From: Armatimonadota bacterium
GTDB lineage: Bacteria; Armatimonadota; DTGP01; JAKQQT01
NCBI GenBank assembly: GCA_036504855.1
Contig: DASXUL010000031.1
Span: forward strand, 3,077 to 67,076
DNA: 64,000 nt
Direction of reading: 5' to 3'
Part shown: positions 13,842-62,263 of the stretch, in pieces
Position numbering within the stretch: position 1 is the stretch's first letter
Layout: every line of letters starts with the position of its first letter
Program-made: the position numbers and the translations under genes
Notes under the pieces: generated by a model
What the model saw: only the letters and a program-made list of their open reading frames with translations
The model's database searches: none
What the model was told of the DNA's origin: nothing

Positions 13842-13985
13842 GGATAGTCATCAGTTATCAGTCGTCAGTCTTCAGTCCGGCGGCTTCGACCATGAGGCCG
13901 CTTACCGCATGGTCGAGACCTCCGGACTGATGACTGAGGACTGATGACTGATGACTGACGACTGAAGACTGAAGACTGAAGACTC
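13842..13985. repeat. Nested-palindrome intergenic element, copy 2, between two minus-strand genes
   Basis: tcatcagttatcagtcgtcagtcttcagtccggcggcttcgaccatgaggccgcttaccgcatggtcgagacctccggactgatgactgaggactgatgactgatgactgacgactgaagactgaagactgaagac. Confidence 0.75.
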
Positions 13986-22196: not shown

Positions 22197-22320
22197 CGCG
22201 TCAGCTGTCAGCTATCAGCCTTCAGCAATCAACCGGAAGCTCCGCCCAACGAGGACAGTATCCTCGACGGGCGGAGCTTCCGGCTGATGGCTGAAGGCTG
22301 ATAGCAGACAGCTGATATTC
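22197..22320. repeat. Nested-palindrome intergenic element, copy 3 (variant heptamers CAGCTGT / CAGCTAT / CAGCAAT), between convergent genes
   Basis: gtcagctgtcagctatcagccttcagcaatcaaccggaagctccgcccaacgaggacagtatcctcgacgggcggagcttccggctgatggctgaaggctgatagcagacagctgat. Confidence 0.7.
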
Positions 22321-28942: not shown

Positions 28943-29184
28943 CACATTCACCTCGTAAAGACATGGGGCATGGCGGCAAAACGGGCCACGCGATCGGCTT
29001 CGACAGAGCGGGCAATGGGTACGGGCACAGTGTAGGACGCGAGCGTTCCGCCGAACCAACCGAACCGCCCCCCCGCCCCCCAATCCTGGGGGACCCAAAA
29101 GTGAACGCGCGGTTCTGACGCGACGCTTACGCCGAGCGAATGGCTTGGGTCCCCCAGGATTGGTGGGCAGGGGGGCAGAGAAGC

Positions 29185-29900: not shown

Positions 29901-32729
29901 ATGTTGGACACCCATCCGGGATCGGACGCGGGAGACGGGTTCACGCTCGGCGCCCCGCCCGCGCGCAAATCGCGCGCCAAGAAAGCCGTCCGGCGCGGCA
30001 TCACCGTGCGCCGGTTCTTCACCGAGCCGGACGTCCACCCCTTCGATGAGCTCGAATGGGAGATGCGCTCCGCCGCCATCACCGACGAGAGCGGCAAGAT
30101 CATCTTCGAGCAGAAGGATGTGGAAATGCCGGTCAGTTGGAGCCAACTGGCCACCAACGTCGTCGTCTCCAAATACTTCAAGGGCCCCATTGACACGCCG
30201 CAGCGCGAGCGCAGCCTGAAGCAACTGATCGGCCGCGTTACCGCCACCCTCACCGCCTGGGGCGTGAAGGACAACTATTTCGCGGACCAGGAGGATGCCG
30301 AGGCTTTCAACGCCGAGCTTTCCTACCTGCTGGTGAACCAGTACGCCGCCTTCAACAGCCCGGTGTGGTTCAACGTGGGCGTGGAAGCGAACCCGCAGTG
30401 CTCCGCCTGCTTCATCCAGAGCGTGCAGGACAACATGAGCAGCATCATGGACCTCGCCAAGAACGAGGTGATGCTCTTCAAGTACGGTTCCGGCACCGGC
30501 TCCAACCTCTCCAACATCCGCAGCTCCAAGGAGCATCTGGGCGGCGGCGGCGTGGCCAGCGGCCCCGTTTCCTTCATGAAGGGGTACGATTCGTTCGCCG
30601 GCGTCATCAAGTCCGGCGGCAAGACGCGCCGCGCGGCCAAGATGGTGATCCTGAACGCGGATCACCCGGATATCGAGGAGTTCATCAACTGCAAGGCCTC
30701 GGAAGAGAGGAAGGCCTGGGCGCTGATCGACGCCGGCTATGACGGCGGGTTCAACGTGGTTGGCGGCGCCTACGACAGCATCCAGTTCCAGAACGCCAAC
30801 AACTCCGTGCGCGCCACCGACGACTTCATGCGCGCCGTGGACCAGGACGGCGATTGGACCACCCGCTTCGTTACCACCGGCGAGCCGTACGAAACGAAGA
30901 AGGCCCGCGAGTATATGCGCCAGATCGCCGAGGCCGCCTGGGTCTGCGGCGACCCCGGCATGCAGTTCCACACCACCATCAACGACTGGCATACCTGCCC
31001 GAACACCGCCCCCATCAACGCCTCCAACCCGTGCAGCGAGTACGTGTTCCTGGATGACTCCGCCTGCAATCTCGCCAGCCTGAACCTGATGAAGTTCCGC
31101 GAGGAAGACGGCGCCCTGGATATCGACGCGTTCTGCCACGCGGTCAGCATCTTCGTGCTGGCCCAGGAGATCATCGTCGGGAACGCGGCCTATCCCACCG
31201 AGGCCATCGAGAAGAACAGCCATGCCTACCGCCCGCTGGGCCTCGGATACGCCAACCTGGGCGCGCTGCTGATGGCGCGCGGCGTGCCTTACGACAGCGA
31301 TGAAGGCCGGGCCATCTGCGGAGCCATTACCGCCCTGATGACCGGCCAGGCCTACAAAACCAGCGCGCAGATCGCCGCCCACACCGGCCCCTTCGCCGGC
31401 TTCGCGGCCAACCGCGAACCCTGCCTGCGCGTCATCAAGAAGCACGGCGCCGCCGTGAACACCATTGACCCGAAGAAGTGCTCCGAGGACCTCCTGGAAG
31501 CCGCCAAGGAAGTCTGGTCGGACGCCTACGCGGTGGCCAGCGAGCACGGAGTGCGCAACGCCCAGGTGACCGTGCTGGCGCCCACCGGCACCATCGCCTT
31601 CTTCATGGACTGCGACACCACCGGCATCGAGCCGGACATCGCGTTGGTGAAGTACAAGAAGCTGGTGGGCGGCGGACTGCTGAAGATCGTGAACCAGACC
31701 GTGCCCGAGGCCCTGACGCGGCTCGGCTACGACGCGGATGAGGTATCCGGCATCCTGGACTATATCGACCAGAACGACACGATCGAGGGCGCGCCCGGGC
31801 TGCGGGATGAGCATCTGCCGGTGTTCGATTGCGCCTTCAAGCCCGCCAATGGCCTGCGCAGCATCCACTACATGGGCCACGTCCGCATGATGGCGGCGGC
31901 CCAGCCGTTCATCAGCGGCGCCATCTCGAAGACGGTGAACATGCCCCACACGGCCACCGCCGAGGAGATCGCCCACACCTACCTGGAAGCCTGGAAGCTG
32001 GGGCTGAAGGCCATCGCTATCTACCGCGACGGGTGCAAGCGCACCCAGCCGCTGAACACCAGCCGCGACGCCGGTTCCGGCGCGCAGACGCCCGCCAACC
32101 AGGTCGTGATGGCCCCCGAAGCGCGCCCGCAGCGGCGGCGCCTGCCGGACGAGCGCAACAGCGTGACCCACAAGTTCAGCGTGGCCGGCCATGAGGGCTA
32201 TATCACCGTTGGCCTGTATGAAGACGGCACGCCCGGCGAGGTGTTCATCACCATCAGCAAGGAAGGCAGCGTGGTTAGCGGCATGATGGATGCTTTTGCC
32301 ACCGCCATCAGCCTGAACCTGCAATACGGCGTGCCCCTGGGCGTGCTGGTGAAGAAGTACAGCCACATGCGCTTCGAGCCCAGCGGCTTTACCCAGAACA
32401 AGCAGATCCCCATCGCCAAGAGCATCGTGGACTACATCTTCCGCTGGATGGCGCTGAAGTTCATGCCGGACACGGAACAGCCCAACCTGCCGCTGGAGAT
32501 GGAGCCCGTTAAGCCGGTCGCCAACGGCAACGGCAAGAGCAACGGCCTCACCGGCCTGGCCATGGCCGCCCTGGGCGCCAACAAGTCGGTGACCCTGGCC
32601 TCTCAGGAAGCCCTGGTCTACCAGACCCAAACCGACGCCCCGCCCTGCCCCGAGTGCGGCACCATCATGACCCGCTCCGGCAGTTGCTACCGCTGCATCA
32701 ACTGCGGAGGCACCAGCGGCTGCTCGTAG
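29901..32729 (+). CDS. nrdJ: Adenosylcobalamin-dependent (class II) ribonucleotide reductase
   Basis: 942 aa. Conserved RNR regions (NPCSEYVFLDDSACNLASLNL, ...ISKTVNMP..., active-site Cys/Glu context) and a C-terminal zinc ribbon CPECG...CYRCINCG. Confidence 0.9.
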   Translation: MLDTHPGSDAGDGFTLGAPPARKSRAKKAVRRGITVRRFFTEPDVHPFDELEWEMRSAAITDESGKIIFEQKDVEMPVSWSQLATNVVVSKYFKGPIDTPQRERSLKQLIGRVTATLTAWGVKDNYFADQEDAEAFNAELSYLLVNQYAAFNSPVWFNVGVEANPQCSACFIQSVQDNMSSIMDLAKNEVMLFKYGSGTGSNLSNIRSSKEHLGGGGVASGPVSFMKGYDSFAGVIKSGGKTRRAAKMVILNADHPDIEEFINCKASEERKAWALIDAGYDGGFNVVGGAYDSIQFQNANNSVRATDDFMRAVDQDGDWTTRFVTTGEPYETKKAREYMRQIAEAAWVCGDPGMQFHTTINDWHTCPNTAPINASNPCSEYVFLDDSACNLASLNLMKFREEDGALDIDAFCHAVSIFVLAQEIIVGNAAYPTEAIEKNSHAYRPLGLGYANLGALLMARGVPYDSDEGRAICGAITALMTGQAYKTSAQIAAHTGPFAGFAANREPCLRVIKKHGAAVNTIDPKKCSEDLLEAAKEVWSDAYAVASEHGVRNAQVTVLAPTGTIAFFMDCDTTGIEPDIALVKYKKLVGGGLLKIVNQTVPEALTRLGYDADEVSGILDYIDQNDTIEGAPGLRDEHLPVFDCAFKPANGLRSIHYMGHVRMMAAAQPFISGAISKTVNMPHTATAEEIAHTYLEAWKLGLKAIAIYRDGCKRTQPLNTSRDAGSGAQTPANQVVMAPEARPQRRRLPDERNSVTHKFSVAGHEGYITVGLYEDGTPGEVFITISKEGSVVSGMMDAFATAISLNLQYGVPLGVLVKKYSHMRFEPSGFTQNKQIPIAKSIVDYIFRWMALKFMPDTEQPNLPLEMEPVKPVANGNGKSNGLTGLAMAALGANKSVTLASQEALVYQTQTDAPPCPECGTIMTRSGSCYRCINCGGTSGCS

Positions 32730-32823
32730 TCGACTCCAAAACCCGTTCGTGAACCGGGGGCCGCGCCAGACTTGGCGCGGCCCTCCGACCATCTCGGTTA
32801 GCCGAGTAGGAGAAAGCACAAAG

Positions 32824-33672
32824 TTGACGTTTTCCGAAAGAATGGGGATCGTGAAGCCTCGCGAGGCGCTCCAGGTTAGCCGGATCGATACCGCGCTGCG
32901 TTACTCACTTTGGAACACAGTTGTGTCTGCCTTCGGCAATGACTGGCGCAAACTTGCCGGTCTGTTGTTCGACAAACACTGCAAACTACCAGTAGACTCC
33001 CTGCCCGACAAATCATACTGCGAACATCGCGGTGGCCGTGACGAGAACAGCCCATGCCGCCACTGGCTTCTGGATAAGTTCAACTGCTGCCCCTGGTACG
33101 AGGTATACGACCTGTTGGAGTGCATAGTCACCAACTTGAACCTGCTTCAGCCAGACGCCGTGCTGCAGAGACAATTCCTGCAGGAGGTCAGCCAAGTTCT
33201 AGAGCGTGAGGGCTCAGGCTACCGCCTCATTGGGACCGAGTTCGCCCCCATAGCATCAGAGGCAGACATTGCGGCGATTGAGGCGGCTCAGCGCTCGCCA
33301 TTGGTAGGTGCCAGCACGCACATCAGCAAGGGCCTCTCCTGCTTCGCACGGAAACCCGAACCAGACTACCACAATTGCATCAAGGAATCTATCACTGCGG
33401 TGGAGAGCGTCTGCAAGATCATCGTCGGCGACGACAAGGCTACACTTGGCAAGGTGCTCAGTAAGCTCGACAGCGTCATGCCCATTCACAAAAGCCTGCG
33501 CCAGTCCATGGACTTCCTGTACGCATTCACAAACGATGAGGGCGGCATCCGGCATGCCGGCTCGACCAAGTCCGAAGTCGGTTGCGCCGAAGCCAGGTTC
33601 TGCTTGGTGACGTGTTCCGCCCTCGTCGGTTACCTCACCGACAAGGCGCGGGAGACTGGCCTTCTTTCGTAG
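32824..33672 (+). CDS. AbiJ-NTD4 / HEPN (Abi_C)-like abortive-infection-type protein, in a lower-GC islet
   Basis: N-terminus (M)TFSERMGIVKPREALQVSRIDTALRYSLWNTVVSAF resembles the AbiJ N-terminal domain. TTG start at 32824, with RBS aggaga 8 nt upstream. Local GC is about 55-58% against 68-70% in flanks. Confidence 0.5.
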   Translation: MTFSERMGIVKPREALQVSRIDTALRYSLWNTVVSAFGNDWRKLAGLLFDKHCKLPVDSLPDKSYCEHRGGRDENSPCRHWLLDKFNCCPWYEVYDLLECIVTNLNLLQPDAVLQRQFLQEVSQVLEREGSGYRLIGTEFAPIASEADIAAIEAAQRSPLVGASTHISKGLSCFARKPEPDYHNCIKESITAVESVCKIIVGDDKATLGKVLSKLDSVMPIHKSLRQSMDFLYAFTNDEGGIRHAGSTKSEVGCAEARFCLVTCSALVGYLTDKARETGLLS

Positions 33673-33728
33673 CGCCCGGGCGTTACGCCGTGCGGAGGCT
33701 CTTCGGCGCGATGTGTAGCCTTCCTTCC

Positions 33729-33876
33729 CACGTCACCCTGAGGAACGAAGGGTCTCGGCCTTGCGCTGCGTCGTGGGAGACGTCTCAGGCACCCGATACC
33801 ACCTTGGCATGGGTGCTTGAGACGTTTTTTGTTGCGGGCGGCCAGGCCGAGACCCTTCGTTCCTCAGGGTGACGTG
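33729..33876. repeat. 32-bp perfect inverted repeat flanking an inner terminator-like hairpin
   Basis: cacgtcaccctgaggaacgaagggtctcggcc (33729-33760) is perfectly reverse-complementary to 33845-33876. Inner stem gagacgtctcaggcaccc...gggtgcttgagacg is followed by ttttttgtt. Confidence 0.65.
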
Positions 33877-34308
33877 GAAGGGAGGCGACTCGCATCGCGA
33901 ACGGAAGCCCCGCGCGCGGACGGGTCAGGACGGCCAGCGTCCCTTGGCGCGGCGCGGGGCGGACACGGCAGGCCGTGTCCCTTCGCTTACCTGGTTCCCT
34001 CCGCCGAACGGTGGACGGCCGGGCCCACCGGGTCCGGGCGGCTCCGGCGCGGCCCTTCAGGGCCATCATGGCCGATGGCCCGTAGACGGGGGGGTCCAAC
34101 CCCCGGCCCACCTCCCGCCCAGCCTCTCCCCGCTGACGGCTGATAGCTGACGGCTTCTTATATGACGCGCTTATGAACTCTCTGTGAATTCTCGCGGCCG
34201 CTGAGCGTGGAGGCGCTTCGGGGACGCTTAAGAGGGCGGTTTTGGGGCCGAAGACCCAGATGGTTGCGCACCCAATAACCGAAACGAATAGGCACGGAGG
34301 CCACAACA

Positions 34309-34902
34309 ATGACCATCTCAGGTCTCGGTTCCAGCTACAACATCAAATCGTTGACCGGAACCCAAAGCACATCATCGATCGCCAGCCTGCTGGCGACGGA
34401 GGACACAGACAGCGCGAGTTCCACATCCAGCGCCGCCGATCTGTCGAAGCCAGGCCAGATGCTGGCCAAGTTGAAGCAGCTTCAGCAGGAAGACCCGGCC
34501 AAGTTCAAGGAAGTCGTCAGCAAAATCGCGGACAAGCTCTCGGCCGCGGCCGAGAAGGCCGGCGCGGATACCAAAGACGGCAAGTTCCTTACGAAGCTCG
34601 CCAGCGATTTCCAGAAGGCGGCGGACACGGGCGACCTCTCGTCGCTGGAGCCGCCGGCTCGCCCGGCCAATGACGCCATCGCCGCCTACAAGTCGCTCAG
34701 CGGCAGCGATGGCAGCGCGCTCGGCAAAGCAGCCAACGGCAAGGGCCCCCGCGGCGCCGGCGGACCTCCTCCGGGCGGACCGCCGCCCGCCAGCAGCGCC
34801 TCCGACGACGATGACGACTCCGACACGACCACTGTGAAGTCCCTGCTGGATCAGATCGACGACGAACTGACCGCCGCCCTCAGCGGAAGCTCCGAGTCCT
34901 GA
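34309..34902 (+). CDS. Hypothetical low-complexity (Ser/Ala/Asp-rich, likely disordered) protein
   Basis: 197-aa ORF with moderate-GC codon usage. Poly-D/S tracts and a GGPPPGGPPP motif. No recognisable domain. Confidence 0.35.
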   Translation: MTISGLGSSYNIKSLTGTQSTSSIASLLATEDTDSASSTSSAADLSKPGQMLAKLKQLQQEDPAKFKEVVSKIADKLSAAAEKAGADTKDGKFLTKLASDFQKAADTGDLSSLEPPARPANDAIAAYKSLSGSDGSALGKAANGKGPRGAGGPPPGGPPPASSASDDDDDSDTTTVKSLLDQIDDELTAALSGSSES

Positions 34903-35310
34903 TCTCACCCCCAGGTGCATAGAGCGATGATTAGCTGAATGCCGAAGCCGGCGCGGAACGACAATCCCCCTCCCGCTCTCGCCGGCTCCGGCATTCCCCA
35001 TCCGTCACTCATCGCACGTCACGCCGCATCCAACCGGCCACGGCGCCCGCCAGGAAGCCCAGCGGCAGGTAGCGGCCGAAATCCTCCATCAGCGCTCGAA
35101 TGCACTGGGCGTCCACCGGCCCTCTCACCGTTCCGATGACCACCAGCGCCACCAACCCGATCCCCATCACGCCGCCCACCAGGCTTCTCCCCACGTTGGC
35201 TGTCCGTTCCATCGTTCCATATCCTCCATTCGGCGCGCCCTCATTGGCCCGTCAAAAGGAGCTTGCTCCATCCCCCTCCCCGCCGCACTGGTCCCTTGGT
35301 ACCGATTTGG

Positions 35311-35448
35311 GAGTCGTCAGTCATCAGTTTTCAGTCATCAGTGATCAGTCGTCAGTCATCAGCCCGAAGGCTCATATGAGCAGCGCACTTTCCTGATGGA
35401 GCAAACCCTCGGGCTGATGACTGACGACTGACAACTGACGACTGATCA
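35311..35448. repeat. Nested-palindrome intergenic element, copy 4, upstream of queG
   Basis: gagtcgtcagtcatcagttttcagtcatcagtgatcagtcgtcagtcatcagcccgaagg...ccctcgggctgatgactgacgactgacaactgacgactgatca. Confidence 0.75.
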
Positions 35449-35475
35449 CCGAAAACTCCCGCTACACTGAATCCC

Positions 35476-36621
35476 ATGGACACGGCGGCGTTCACGGCGG
35501 AATTGAAGGCGGAGGCGCGGCGGCTCGGGTTCCCGGCGGCCCGCGCGGCTCTCGCCCAGCCGGCCGCGCACCGCTCGGCCTTCCGCGCCTGGCTGGATGC
35601 GGGCATGCACGGCGAGATGGCGTACATGGCGCGCGTCCCGGAGGTGCGCGAGGATCCCGCCGCCCTGCTGCCTGGCGCCGTTTCCGCCCTCGTGGTGGGC
35701 CTCAACTACTTCACGCCGGACAGGGACTCATCTGCGCCGCGCCCGGCCGGGGTCGTCAGCCGGTATGTGCGCGGCGGGGATTACCATGAGGCCATGTGGG
35801 CGCGCCTGAACGAACTGGGGGCCTGGGTGCGCGCCCGCGTGCCCGGCGCTGAAGCGAAAGGCTGTGTAGATACCGCTCCGGTGTTGGAGAGAGACCTGGC
35901 GGCCGCCGGCGGGCTCGGCTGGATCGGGAAGAACACATGCCTCATCACGCCCGGCGTTGGGTCCTGGTACTTCATCGGCGAGTTGCTCCTCAGCGTGCCG
36001 CTGGAGCCGGACCCGCCGATCGGCGACCACTGCGGATCGTGCCGCAGGTGCCTCGACGCCTGCCCCACCGGCGCCTTCGCCGGGCCGCGCGCTCTGGATG
36101 CCCGCCGCTGCATCTCCTACCTCACCATCGAGCTCAAAGGCCCCATCCCGCGCGACCTGCGCCCCCTGATGGGCCTGCACGTCTACGGCTGCGACATCTG
36201 CCAGGACGTCTGCCCTCACAACAAATGGCAGACGCCCACCAACGACCCGGCCCTCCAGCCGCGGTCTGATCTGAACCGGCCGGACCTGCTGGACCTCCTT
36301 TCGCTGGACGCGGAGGCTTTCCGCGCGCGGTTCCGCGGGTCGGCCATCCTCCGCACGAAGCGGCGCGGGCTCTTGCGAAACGTCTGCGTGGCCCTGGGAA
36401 ACGCCGGAGACGCGCGCGCCGCGCCGGCGCTTACCGCCGCGCTTTCCGACCCGGAGCCCCTCGTTCGCGGTCACGCCGCATGGGCGCTGGGCCGCCTCGG
36501 CGGCGCGGAGGAGGCGTTGCGCGCGGCCCGGGCCGGGGAGGCCGATGCGTGGGTGCGCGAGGAGATCGACGAAGCGCTATCGGATTCCTTGCCTCACCCT
36601 CCCTGCGAGGGGCCACAATGA
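35476..36621 (+). CDS. queG: Epoxyqueuosine reductase
   Basis: Two 4Fe-4S motifs (CGSCRRCLDACPTGAF, CDICQDVCPHNKW) plus C-terminal HEAT-like PEPLVRGHAAWALGRLG. Confidence 0.85.
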   Translation: MDTAAFTAELKAEARRLGFPAARAALAQPAAHRSAFRAWLDAGMHGEMAYMARVPEVREDPAALLPGAVSALVVGLNYFTPDRDSSAPRPAGVVSRYVRGGDYHEAMWARLNELGAWVRARVPGAEAKGCVDTAPVLERDLAAAGGLGWIGKNTCLITPGVGSWYFIGELLLSVPLEPDPPIGDHCGSCRRCLDACPTGAFAGPRALDARRCISYLTIELKGPIPRDLRPLMGLHVYGCDICQDVCPHNKWQTPTNDPALQPRSDLNRPDLLDLLSLDAEAFRARFRGSAILRTKRRGLLRNVCVALGNAGDARAAPALTAALSDPEPLVRGHAAWALGRLGGAEEALRAARAGEADAWVREEIDEALSDSLPHPPCEGPQ

Positions 36622-50810: not shown

Positions 50811-50912
50811 GGGAGTCATCAGTTGTCAGTGATCAGTCGTCAGTTCGGAGCCATTGGAGACGGCTCTACTCGGCGACTGACTACTGATGACTGACGACTG
50901 ACAACTCATACC
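50811..50912. repeat. Nested-palindrome intergenic element, copy 5. It fills the steA-mctB spacer.
   Basis: ggagtcatcagttgtcagtgatcagtcgtcagttcggagccattggagacggctctactcggcgactgactactgatgactgacgactgacaactc. Confidence 0.75.
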
Positions 50913-51797: not shown

Positions 51798-51916
51798 GTC
51801 AGCAATCAGCAATCAGCATTCAGCCCGAAGGCCTCTGTCCATGAGACACCGCATCTCATGGACAGAGGCCTTCGGGCTGAATGCTGAATGCTGAATGCTG
51901 AATGCTGATTGCTGAC
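51798..51916. repeat. Nested-palindrome intergenic element, copy 6 (CAGCAAT / CAGCATT heptamer variant), with a perfect inner hairpin
   Basis: ggtcagcaatcagcaatcagcattcagcccgaaggcctctgtccatgagacaccgcatctcatggacagaggccttcgggctgaatgctgaatgctgaatgctgattgctgacc. Confidence 0.78.
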
Positions 51917-62058: not shown

Positions 62059-62172
62059 TAGTCATCAGTCATCAGTCGTCAGTGATCAGTCAGGAGGCTT
62101 GGGCCATGAGGATGGCCTCCGGTTGGGCCCAGCCTCCTGACTGACGACTGAAAACTGATGACTGATGACTGC
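62059..62172. repeat. Nested-palindrome intergenic element, copy 7, in a divergent promoter region
   Basis: tagtcatcagtcatcagtcgtcagtgatcagtcaggaggcttgggccatgaggatggcctccggttgggcccagcctcctgactgacgactgaaaactgatgactgatgactgc. Confidence 0.75.
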
Positions 62173-62263
62173 TCACTGATACCTCAATATGCCACGGCGG
62201 GCCGGGCGAATGCATCTGCGCCCAGGTTTACGGTCCCAACCGCGCGCGCGGCGTGGAAAGAAG

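Follow-up and report, generated by a model that had tools for sequence, protein, structure and literature searches.

In an Armatimonadota contig, the region 3' of nrdJ had been described by a sequence-only reading as a low-GC islet (32750-34905) that combines a phage defense-like gene, a long inverted repeat, and an open reading frame (ORF) of 197 aa. The question raised by this locus is which of these elements belong together, that is, whether the gene acts alone or with the repeat or a neighbor as its partner, and whether it was acquired from elsewhere. Throughout the text, "the window" is the whole 64-kb stretch of DNA that was analyzed. We consider it probable that the locus holds one horizontally acquired AbiJ_NTD4-HEPN gene (PADLOC family PDC-S32), which would encode a sensor-controlled RNase and whose terminator lies within an unrelated palindromic hairpin repeat.

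Gene boundaries and composition

The abiJ-like gene and the signals on its 5' side are as follows.

32755 to 32787, + strand: GC-rich hairpin, terminator-like without a T-run, just 3' of the nrdJ stop codon (RNA fold)
32808 to 32816, + strand: ribosome-binding site AGGAGAAAG, with AGGAG at 32808-32812, 11 nt 5' of the TTG (read from the sequence)
32824 to 33672, + strand: abiJ-like coding sequence (TTG start; 282 aa) for a protein that combines AbiJ_NTD4 with a HEPN fold and belongs to PADLOC family PDC-S32

The stop codon of nrdJ (32727-32729) is followed by the hairpin, with the stretch 32730-32830 folding at -44 kcal/mol (z, -3.7). The proposed TTG start with a strong ribosome-binding site held up: besides the AGGAG, it is backed by an N-terminal F-S-x-R-x-G that was invariant in an alignment of 17 sequences and at least 90% conserved among 117 sequences. 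In the JGI annotation, the gene (P0001) begins at the ATG at 32842 and encodes 276 aa, 6 residues fewer than from the TTG. In 400-nt windows, low GC values (0.547 to 0.588) were confined to 32800-33600, which is the body of the gene. The islet thus shrinks to the ~850-bp gene only, since the noncoding spacer behind it (33673-34308; GC, 0.675) and the 197-aa ORF (GC, 0.650; third-position GC [GC3], 0.818) show the native composition. The flanks, given earlier as 68 to 70% GC, ranged from 0.62 to 0.70 and were not uniform. The gene itself had a GC of 0.574 and a GC3 of 0.721, about 2.2 standard deviations (SD) under the mean for the window's 40 long, coding-like ORFs (mean, 0.820; SD, 0.044; minimum, 0.69).

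Two features lie in the downstream part of the proposed islet.

34132 to 34155, strand not applicable: direct repeat with a 7-nt period (GCTGACG GCTGATA GCTGACG GCT), apparently a lone arm from the window's heptamer-hairpin family
34309 to 34902, + strand: orf197, a 197-aa protein rich in Ser, Ala, and Asp, in which residues ~46 to 113 form a conserved helical core

The ~630 bp of noncoding DNA reported here was confirmed as a spacer of 636 nt whose ORFs had no Pfam match, and the degenerate solo arm, expected at ~34131-34157, was recovered within it as the 7-nt-periodic stretch, resembling heptamer-hairpin copies elsewhere in the window. As for the 197-aa ORF, it is a real gene, with a ribosome-binding site (GGAGG at 34296-34300) and nine remote homologs that were aligned and that form a small unrelated family in an unrelated genomic context (no Pfam, NCBIfam, or PHROG match); its GC3, however, takes it out of the foreign segment to which it had been assigned. 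It is an unrelated native gene, separate from the defense gene.

Domain architecture and putative active site

The protein is made up of two domains.

32824 to 33291, + strand: N-terminal domain AbiJ_NTD4 (Pfam PF18863), residues 1 to 156, a putative sensor/regulatory domain
33304 to 33669, + strand: C-terminal HEPN-fold domain, residues ~161 to 282, with the R243-H244 codons at 33550-33555

The likeness of the N terminus to AbiJ-type proteins, first noticed in the bare sequence, was borne out by a Pfam match to AbiJ_NTD4 (E = 4.1e-23; 82.9 bits versus a cutoff of 34; profile positions 1 to 150 of 152), which was also present in 17 of 17 aligned homologs. Over its whole length, the protein matched PADLOC PDC-S32, with an E value of 2.3e-79 for profile PDLC04997 (residues 1 to 276 versus profile positions 7 to 282 of 285) and 4.5e-70 for a second profile, PDLC04996. 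A protein search retrieved 3517 homologs, all about 270 to 300 aa long, while the C-terminal domain alone as the query retrieved 3715 clusters at 50% identity, with the same architecture in nearly all of them. The closest non-self homolog was 42 to 44% identical, and the window protein differs from its homologs by an 11-aa insertion at residues 64 to 74 (17-sequence alignment) and by C185, where they carry Ser. There was no match to the PDB in a sequence-profile search, none with an E value of <1 by Foldseek, and none in PHROGs or NCBIfam for any of the three proteins of the region. A weak PADLOC match to "DrmC" (E = 1.6e-5) was seen at residues 217 to 281.

The claim of a C-terminal HEPN (Abi_C) domain stood as regards the fold and failed as regards the motif and the Pfam family. 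The AlphaFold model of the protein had a mean pLDDT of 81.6, and the C-terminal domain adopts the four-helix up-and-down bundle of the HEPN superfamily. However, the isolated domain scored 12.6 bits with Pfam Abi_C (PF14355), below the cutoff of 24 (E = 0.15), with even weak matches in only 2 of the 17 homologs, and a scan of the C-terminal part for the strict Rx4-6H HEPN motif was negative across 117 sequences. The sole invariant Arg of the domain in these sequences, R243, directly precedes H244; no conserved His stands 4 to 6 residues after R243, and no conserved Arg stands 4 to 6 residues before H166 or H222. The window protein keeps every invariant residue of the alignment, which in this domain are H166, N184, K187, E188, E194, H222, Y233, G241, R243, and H244. 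To judge from this conservation, the R243-H244 pair, located in a loop before the last helix, is a putative noncanonical active site, together with H166, N184, E188, and H222. The loop is the least confident part of the model (pLDDT of <50 at residues 239 to 249).

A protein with this fold might also lack nuclease activity and be a ligand- or nucleic acid-binding regulator (compare MtlR/YggD and the HEPN domain of sacsin), or else a selfish toxin or addiction gene with a benefit other than phage defense. We consider this unlikely, given that R243, H244, H222, H166, N184, and E188 are kept in 117 of 117 sequences, a pattern typical of an active site, that the domain spans as many as 3715 clusters, and that homologs are found among restriction-modification (R-M) systems, prophages, and plasmids, in a family listed by PADLOC as a defense candidate.

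Acquisition and genomic context

Horizontal acquisition, as had been suggested, was supported by the deviant GC3, by the distance to the nearest homolog, and by the places in which homologs are found. At one homolog locus, the neighbors were R-M and AAA_15 genes (a defense island), another homolog adjoined an integrase, and a further one adjoined a terminase. The AbiJ_NTD4/PDC-S32 family occurred on 80 viral contigs and on 41 plasmids, 25 of which were conjugative. One homolog stood solitary amid housekeeping genes, like the window gene, which is flanked by nrdJ and the unrelated native orf197. Along with this mobility, gene neighbors were not conserved across four independent homolog loci and no partner was shared among them, in agreement with the earlier view of a solitary gene.

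It could be argued that the gene is an old, native part of its lineage and that its lower GC stems from protein composition or weak expression: a GC3 of 0.72 is low yet within the range of the window, and there is no integrase or tRNA, nor are there clear direct repeats, on either side of the gene. Such an origin is nevertheless quite improbable. The nearest homolog is only 42 to 44% identical, the organism-named homologs among those listed belong to other phyla (the rest are metagenome proteins), the family is patchy and carried by phages and plasmids, and the neighboring nrdJ, orf197, and queG have GC3 values of 0.82 to 0.91 (0.911 for nrdJ).

An 11-nt direct repeat, CTTGGCGCGGC, found at 32771 and 33943, brackets the gene and the palindrome described below; in DNA of high GC, this is within chance expectation. 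With QueG as the query, a set of genomes with one per species gave a best relative of 52% identity, and a large protein search gave relatives at 64 to 69% identity. In these relatives, the synteny 5' of queG was not retained, with GH127 or other genes in that place and nrdJ nonadjacent, and the 213-aa and 68-aa ORFs 5' of queG had no homology to orf197 or orf67. A Logan contig from the same organism was identical to the window and stopped at 34063, which made it uninformative.

Palindromic element and terminator downstream of the gene

The spacer contains a long palindrome, the parts of which are as follows.

33722 to 33883, strand not applicable: 162-nt palindrome that resembles a REPIN or MITE, with arms at 33722-33764 and 33841-33883
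33732 to 33754, + strand: left copy of the hairpin motif, GTCA-CCCT-GAGGAACGA-AGGG-TC, in the left arm
33777 to 33834, + strand: intrinsic terminator of the abiJ-like gene, with the stem at 33777-33828 and a T6 run at 33826-33831
33851 to 33873, - strand: right, inverted copy of the hairpin motif, in the right arm

The perfect inverted repeat of 32 nt that had been reported is real (33728-33759 and 33846-33877, one base away from the earlier placement), with no match in 100 shuffles. It forms the core of arms of 43 nt that are 93% complementary and 76 nt apart, with weaker complementarity out to about 33708-33897, and the RNA fold of the palindrome had z-scores of -16 (+ strand) and -13.5 (- strand). 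The terminator-like hairpin with a T-run inside the repeat was likewise found: the stem (-33.9 kcal/mol; z, -6.25) is followed by UUUUUUGUU, as in intrinsic terminators. A simple terminator scan had missed it because its loop is longer than 8 nt, and it reads as unidirectional because no T-run follows the hairpin on the - strand.

With two inverted repeat copies bounding a short noncoding unit, the palindrome has the makeup of a REPIN- or MITE-like element. It is the only such unit in the 64-kb window; there was no evident target-site duplication flanking it, no significant match to it among plasmids or to a 22-mer of the motif in viral contigs, and no kilobase-scale inverted pair able to bound an autonomous element. 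Three other identities were considered and rejected, namely, an integron attC site (RYYYAAC ... GTTRRRY), given that the right arm reads GTTCCTC and that the motif also follows housekeeping genes, e.g., atpD; a hammerhead-like core, with CUGAUGA/GAAA absent; and a Tn3-type terminal repeat, the likeness to which is limited to GGAACGAA and was judged insufficient.

The long hairpin might also be thought of as an RNA partner of the HEPN protein, and the locus would then have two components. Such an RNA could have a regulatory role or be a type III antitoxin of the kind known for AbiV, AbiF, and ToxIN. A precedent exists in the HEPN toxin AbiV, which is paired with an RNA antitoxin (review PMC13064643), and the hairpin is encoded on the gene's own strand 50 nt past the stop codon, is extremely stable, and folds better on the + strand (-169.7 kcal/mol) than on the - strand (-146.5 kcal/mol). 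Nevertheless, no inverted repeat with arms of at least 20 nt was found up to 400 nt downstream of the homologs (0 of 66 viral-contig loci and 0 of 4 genomic loci), where the intergenic gaps are just 65 to 143 nt, and no type III antitoxin-like tandem repeats adjoin the gene. The arm motif, in turn, occurs at >120 unrelated places, such as after atpD, and never near other AbiJ_NTD4 genes; in all, these 70 homolog loci lack the long inverted repeat. An RNA partner is thus largely refuted, and we give it almost no weight. The inverted repeat does not belong to the defense gene; it represents one copy of a repeat that is widespread and independent of it.

A widespread hairpin motif

The arms carry a hairpin motif of ~24 nt, GTCA-stem-GAGGAACGA-stem-TC, with the general form GTCA-N4-GAGGNACGA-N4'-TC. 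A 20-mer of the arm matched >120 metagenome stretches exactly, in loci of 33 to 71% GC. The stems were of at least 7 types and showed covariation (33 of the 47 non-CCCT variants were fully complementary); the parts that did not vary were the loop, GAGGNACGA, and the GTCA and TC on its two sides. Put together without the hairpin, these flanks (GTCA|TC) equal AGTCATC, the unit of the heptamer arrays in this genome. The motif occurs as singlets, inverted pairs, and arrays. An inverted partner was present for 26 of 114 motif matches, in units of 51 to 176 nt (142 nt in the window), and the inverted-pair architecture was found in 25 of 81 motif loci, of which 80 came from metagenomes and one was that of the window. 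For instance, three units of ~100 nt lay within one 15-kb locus of another organism (L112), and at locus L089, a motif array was mixed with heptamer repeats. The distance from the stop codon to the start of the motif is exactly 12 nt in three gene families that are unrelated to each other, and the high-GC loci have an extra conserved hairpin extension in common. Rfam gave no match at the gathering score for the whole window and 20 motif loci, and at permissive E values, only chance miRNA and snoRNA matches appeared. The motif was not described in the searched literature, in which its strings matched unrelated primers only.

The presence of singlets, inverted doublets, and arrays across very different bacteria is REP/REPIN- or MITE-like behavior, which suggests that the repeat may be mobile. 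On the other hand, the motif could be a functional RNA or single-stranded DNA structure (a protein-binding site, a 3'-end stabilizer, or a terminator module) that is kept because it is useful and is not mobile DNA, in which case its exact conservation across phyla would follow from its function. The identity of the 20-mer over such a range of GC, the covarying stems around a fixed loop and between fixed flanks, the constant distance from the stop codon, and the extension common to high-GC loci all agree with this idea, but the motif is found in either orientation, in the form of inverted pairs, and as multicopy ~100-nt units within one genome, which is how REPIN- or MITE-like DNA behaves, and the arrays mixed with heptamer repeats and the lack of an Rfam family also speak against it. 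On the whole, we find it doubtful. We also put forward, tentatively and as a possibility, that the arms belong to an undescribed, phylum-crossing family of ~24-nt hairpins recognized by a widely shared protein and, as a separate point, that the PDC-S32 HEPN domain may have a new catalytic arrangement (an R-H pair plus remote histidines). The constant loop and flanks at 33 to 71% GC, combined with a covarying stem, point to recognition by such a protein, which would be a transposase-like mover or a host factor.

Proposed mechanism and significance

For the single acquired gene that we favor, the mechanism that we propose follows Anantharaman et al. (2013; PMC3710099). In an uninfected cell, the AbiJ_NTD4 domain would hold the C-terminal HEPN-fold domain inactive; upon infection, it would detect a phage component, and the HEPN domain would then cut RNA, so that the cell is arrested and the infection aborted. 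The system would work without a partner gene, and its transcript would end at the intrinsic terminator (33777-33834) inside the 162-nt palindromic element. In the searchable literature, we found no PDC-S32 or AbiJ_NTD4 member that had been experimentally tested for anti-phage activity.

The gene is a divergent Armatimonadota addition to a family of ~3,700 clusters (50% identity) and a candidate single-protein defense. The AbiJ_NTD4/PDC-S32 family is already catalogued as a defense candidate; the arm hairpin is absent from Rfam and the searched literature. Since the family is devoid of the canonical HEPN motif, its biochemistry would tell whether HEPN RNases can work with an adjacent Arg-His pair; the catalytic arrangement of the PDC-S32 HEPN domain may be one that is new for these enzymes. 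The inverted repeat is the more unexpected result, with an arm hairpin that recurs without a changed letter in widely differing bacteria. If mobile or recognized by a protein, this hairpin would be a widespread genome feature ignored by annotation pipelines, and perhaps translated into spurious ORFs. It would also represent a novel class of very small elements, mobile or functional, that are often accompanied by tandem heptamers.

Comparison with known systems

The closest likeness is to PADLOC PDC-S32, with a full-length match, the same length, the two-domain architecture, the invariant residues, and the single-gene organization. Among its members, the window protein is divergent (at most 44% identity to any other, with the insertion at residues 64 to 74 and C185 in place of Ser), and its gene is a solitary one that has housekeeping genes on both sides and no defense island around it. 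With the AbiJ/Abi_C family (Lactococcus Abi-859 and Staphylococcus aureus SadR), it has in common an N-terminal accessory domain, a C-terminal HEPN-fold domain, and a single-protein system for which an RNase-mediated abortive or defense mechanism is proposed. AbiJ-NTD4 was originally defined as a fusion partner to AbiJ-type HEPN domains (PMC3710099), and NTD4 is found in only 3 of 2,815 Abi_C proteins (PMC13590631). The R-Phi-X3-5-H motif, essential in the S. aureus Abi_C RNase SadR (PMC13590631), is replaced in the window protein by the adjacent R-H pair, and its score with Pfam Abi_C is below the cutoff (12.6 versus 24 bits). Compared with minimal HEPN domains and toxins (2hsb, 1ufb, 1wol, 5yep, and 7ae2), the window protein has neither an MNT antitoxin partner nor Rx4-6H and is fused to a 156-aa N-terminal domain. 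It also differs from type III toxin-antitoxin systems, as no tandem-repeat or conserved RNA gene lies next to the abiJ-like gene across the family.

The palindrome is most similar to REP/REPIN elements (Bertels and Rainey 2011; PMC3116915) and MITEs, being built from a short hairpin repeat that occurs as singlets, long-hairpin inverted doublets, and clusters, in intergenic positions and often just 3' of genes. REPs, however, are normally lineage specific, whereas this motif keeps its exact sequence in organisms whose GC ranges from 33 to 71%; its flank is GTCA and not GTAG, and there is one copy in the 64-kb window. Small dispersed repeats (SDR) and heptameric STRR repeats have reportedly been described in heterocystous cyanobacteria by Elhai et al. 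in 2008. Unlike the cyanobacterial SDR, the window motif is not confined to cyanobacteria. The likeness is one of description: in both cases, hairpin-capable dispersed repeats of 21 to 27 nt are found together with tandem heptamers, as at L089, and the window too holds a heptamer-hairpin family.

A compositional islet of one gene

The sequence-only reading had placed a low-GC islet at 32750-34905, spanning the abiJ-like gene, the spacer downstream and a 197-aa ORF (orf197). The GC drop is real, but its extent was overestimated: in 400-nt windows, values of 0.547 to 0.588 were confined to 32800-33600, returning to 0.67 to 0.70 at 33600-34200. Given this restriction and the native GC3 found elsewhere (mean of 0.820 and standard deviation of 0.044 across 40 long coding-like ORFs of the window), the islet amounts to the ca. 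850-bp abiJ-like gene alone, excluding the spacer and orf197.

Composition of the locus (window coordinates)
29901-32729, nrdJ: GC 0.649, GC3 0.911
32824-33672 (+), abiJ-like gene: GC 0.574, GC3 0.721
33673-34308, spacer: GC 0.675
34309-34902 (+), orf197: GC 0.650, GC3 0.818
35476-36621, queG: GC 0.722, GC3 0.872

The order along the locus is a methyltransferase gene (minus strand), a DCC1-like gene, nrdJ, the abiJ-like region, a 67-aa ORF (minus strand), queG, and two M16 peptidase genes. The genes flanking the abiJ-like region are housekeeping genes, with no defence island. The source is an uncultured Armatimonadota bacterium: QueG and the orf197 product each have a 100% identical counterpart that NCBI lists under 'MAG TPA: Armatimonadota bacterium'. 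JGI contig Ga0376481_000677 (metagenome 3300035523) carries this same locus. Between the divergent methyltransferase and DCC1-like genes lies a C/G-run-rich 32-nt inverted repeat (29067-29176; 94% complementary, arms 46 nt apart). An 11-nt perfect direct repeat, CTTGGCGCGGC, at 32771-32781 and 33943-33953 (spacing of 1,172 nt), flanks the abiJ-like gene together with the palindromic element behind it; such a repeat is at chance level for GC-rich DNA, though its placement is suggestive.

Orf197, expected from the sequence to be a low-complexity component of the low-GC islet, proved real and disordered, with a good ribosome-binding site, but its GC3 is native and it is unrelated to the abiJ-like gene, of which it is no partner. 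Its nine remote homologues (P0242-P0250, 170 to 209 aa) share a helical core of ca. 65 aa, roughly SKPGQLF..LQQLQ..DPA.FK.V....A.KL..A......D...A.FL..LAD.FQKAADTGDLSAL.PP., flanked by Ser/Thr-rich tails, and most members have a run of 4 to 8 histidines. None of the domain databases covers this family. The neighbors of one homologue are genes for glycosyltransferases and NHL-repeat proteins.

The abiJ-like gene belongs to a large candidate defence family

The proposed TTG start (32824) with a ribosome-binding site was borne out: AGGAG can be read 11 nt upstream, and the family N-terminus reads M-x-x-F-S-x-R-x-G, in which F-S-x-R-x-G shows no variation among 17 aligned sequences and is conserved to at least 90% in a larger set of 117. 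This conservation identifies TTG 32824 as the true start of a 282-aa protein; the JGI gene call starts six codons later (ATG 32842, 276 aa) and is hence short. The AbiJ-like N terminus was likewise recovered, as a Pfam AbiJ_NTD4 match to residues 1 to 156 (82.9 bits; cutoff of 34). Both PADLOC PDC-S32 models match the entire protein (E = 2e-79 and 4e-70), while NCBIfam and PHROGs gave no match.

A whole-protein search returned 3,517 homologues in a 90%-clustered collection, and the C-terminal domain alone retrieved 3,715 clusters at 50% identity, nearly all of them of 265 to 310 aa with the domain at the C terminus. No other sequence exceeds 44% identity to the window protein, which is a divergent member of the family and keeps all invariant residues. 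The gene's membership in a catalogued family of defence candidates is supported, and as a kind it is ordinary.

The inverted repeat is built from a cross-phylum hairpin motif

The predicted 32-bp perfect inverted repeat was recovered as the core of the palindromic element (33728-33759/33846-33877; no match in 100 shuffles), whose arms reach 43 nt at 93% complementarity. The 228-nt region 3' of the abiJ-like gene forms one long hairpin (fold z of -16 on the plus and -13.5 on the minus strand). Inside it, the anticipated terminator-like hairpin with its T-run is strong (-33.9 kcal/mol, z of -6.25, T6). The element is single copy within the 64-kb window. In our reading, it resembles a REPIN or MITE, is one copy of a hairpin repeat with a wide distribution, and incidentally supplies or encloses the terminator of the abiJ-like gene.

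The arm 20-mer GTCACCCTGAGGAACGAAGG matches more than 120 metagenome stretches among the matches listed, and the 80 retained loci span 33% to 71% GC. The conserved block, approximately TT-GTCACCCTGAGGAACGAAGG-GTCTC, holds a mini-hairpin (ACCCT/AGGGT, 9-nt loop). Other copies have stems ATTCT/AGAAT, ATGCT/AGCAT, ATTCC/GGAAT, ATCCT/AGGAT, ATGTT/AACAT, and ATGGT/ACCAT, whereas neither the loop (GAGGNACGA) nor the flanking GTCA...TC changes. The stems covary: their 4-nt arms are fully complementary in 33 of 47 non-CCCT variants (1/256 by chance), and shuffled sequence gave no match to the pattern. Copies occur as singlets, inverted doublets, multicopy units, and arrays. Inverted doublets of 51 to 176 nt make up 26 of 114 matches listed (the window unit is 142 nt), one genome (L112) has multiple units of ca. 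100 nt, and arrays in L089, L144, and L157 (periods of 59, 92, and 99 nt) adjoin CACTATT heptamer repeats. In these arrays and in L098, on contigs of 40 to 46% GC, 5 to 12 direct copies (L089 12300-13400, L144 1-600, L157 500-900, L098 2086-3064) are interleaved with two conserved kinds of spacer and the heptamers.

Variants were found in Anaerolineales and Chloroflexota genomes and in one related Armatimonadota MAG. In this MAG (DASXVS010000046.1; L082/L083 13980-14004), the variant GTCATCCTGAGCGAAGCGAAGGATC, followed by a degenerate inverted partner, lies downstream of M16 peptidase genes. In high-GC organisms (metagenome loci L086, L087, L106, L113, L122, and L139), the motif begins exactly 12 nt after a stop codon, the three unrelated genes with this spacing being atpD, an enoyl-CoA hydratase gene, and one for a small conserved protein. 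Directly behind the motif, these loci share an extension, GTCTGTC(S)...(S)GGGAC, whose hairpins covary and which includes a segment capable of alternative pairing; the whole looks like a larger structured unit. No Rfam family matches the motif, and it was not found in the searchable literature, plasmids, or viral contigs. It is unassociated with AbiJ_NTD4 genes: no copy was near them at four genomic homologue loci, and a long downstream inverted repeat was found at 0/4 genomic and 0/66 viral-contig loci. A hairpin repeat that crosses phyla and builds this inverted repeat merits follow-up.

The degenerate solo arm noted further downstream was also recognized, as a 7-nt-periodic stretch (34132-34155) resembling heptamer hairpins elsewhere in the window.

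Intergenic heptamer hairpins (window coordinates)
2783-2900
13846-13984
22201-22315
35312-35457
50814-50906
51799-51915
62060-62180

Their arms (35 to 55 nt, 73 to 96% complementary) are tandem units of AGTCATC/AGTCGTC/AGTGATC or TCAGCAA/TCAGCTG. Such arrays are ca. 10 times denser in the window (7 in 64 kb) than in other bacterial loci (13 in 1.26 Mb); related Armatimonadota contigs have arrays with different units, and nothing in Rfam matches them. Without its hairpin, GTCA[hairpin]TC (33732-33754) reads GTCATC, the core of this genome's commonest unit, AGTCATC (e.g., array 35312-35362); the hairpin could be an insertion into such units.

Mobility and absence of a partner

Among four homologue loci compared, no neighbor was common. 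The Thermodesulfovibrio homologue lies with an AAA_15/AAA_21 ATPase pair, DUF6602, an EMARD_N protein, and two restriction-modification systems; the Stutzerimonas homologue adjoins integrase fragments; a third has a terminase nearby; and the fourth stands alone between rnf/nth and DJ-1 genes, like the window gene. Relatives were found on 80 viral contigs, including many isolate prophages, and on 41 plasmids, of which 25 are conjugative. The deviant GC3 (0.721) and the homologues on phages and plasmids, without shared neighbors, support what had been suggested, a solitary and self-contained gene that was probably acquired horizontally.

Comparison with AbiJ and Abi_C proteins

Architecture, fold, and conservation aside, what is said here of the protein is what we infer. 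According to a proposal by Anantharaman et al., the N-terminal domains of AbiJ proteins are binders of phage components that hold back a C-terminal HEPN toxin until infection (PMC3710099). A model of this type is the most likely one for the abiJ-like protein: AbiJ_NTD4 would bind a phage component and hold the toxin in check in uninfected cells, and infection would lift the restraint. For lactococcal AbiJ, the mechanism is unknown, and escape mutations fall in a single-strand annealing protein (PMC13064643).

Of the expected C-terminal HEPN (Abi_C) domain, the fold assignment is supported, but Pfam Abi_C stayed below threshold (12.6 versus 24 bits), with a weak match in only 2 of 17 homologues, and the defining Rx4-6H motif was not found in the 117-sequence alignment. 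Invariant there are H166, N184, K187, E188, E194, H222, Y233, G241, R243, and H244. R243 and H244 are adjacent, in the loop preceding the last helix (residues 239 to 249, the lowest-confidence region of the model). The last HEPN helices (residues 217 to 281; 33472-33666) also weakly match a 107-position DrmC-labelled PADLOC model (E = 1.6e-5).

SadR, an experimentally studied Abi_C RNase, requires its motif RNEYGDAH both to act as an RNase and to confer defence, and just 3 of the 2,815 Abi_C proteins in the same study carry NTD4 (PMC13590631). Because Rx4-6H is absent, Abi_C is subthreshold, and NTD4 is rare among Abi_C proteins, the abiJ-like family is placed as a sister group of AbiJ/Abi_C proper, outside it. 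Where SadR has RNEYGDAH, this family has an adjacent Arg-His pair, a noncanonical HEPN site common to the whole family that merits follow-up.
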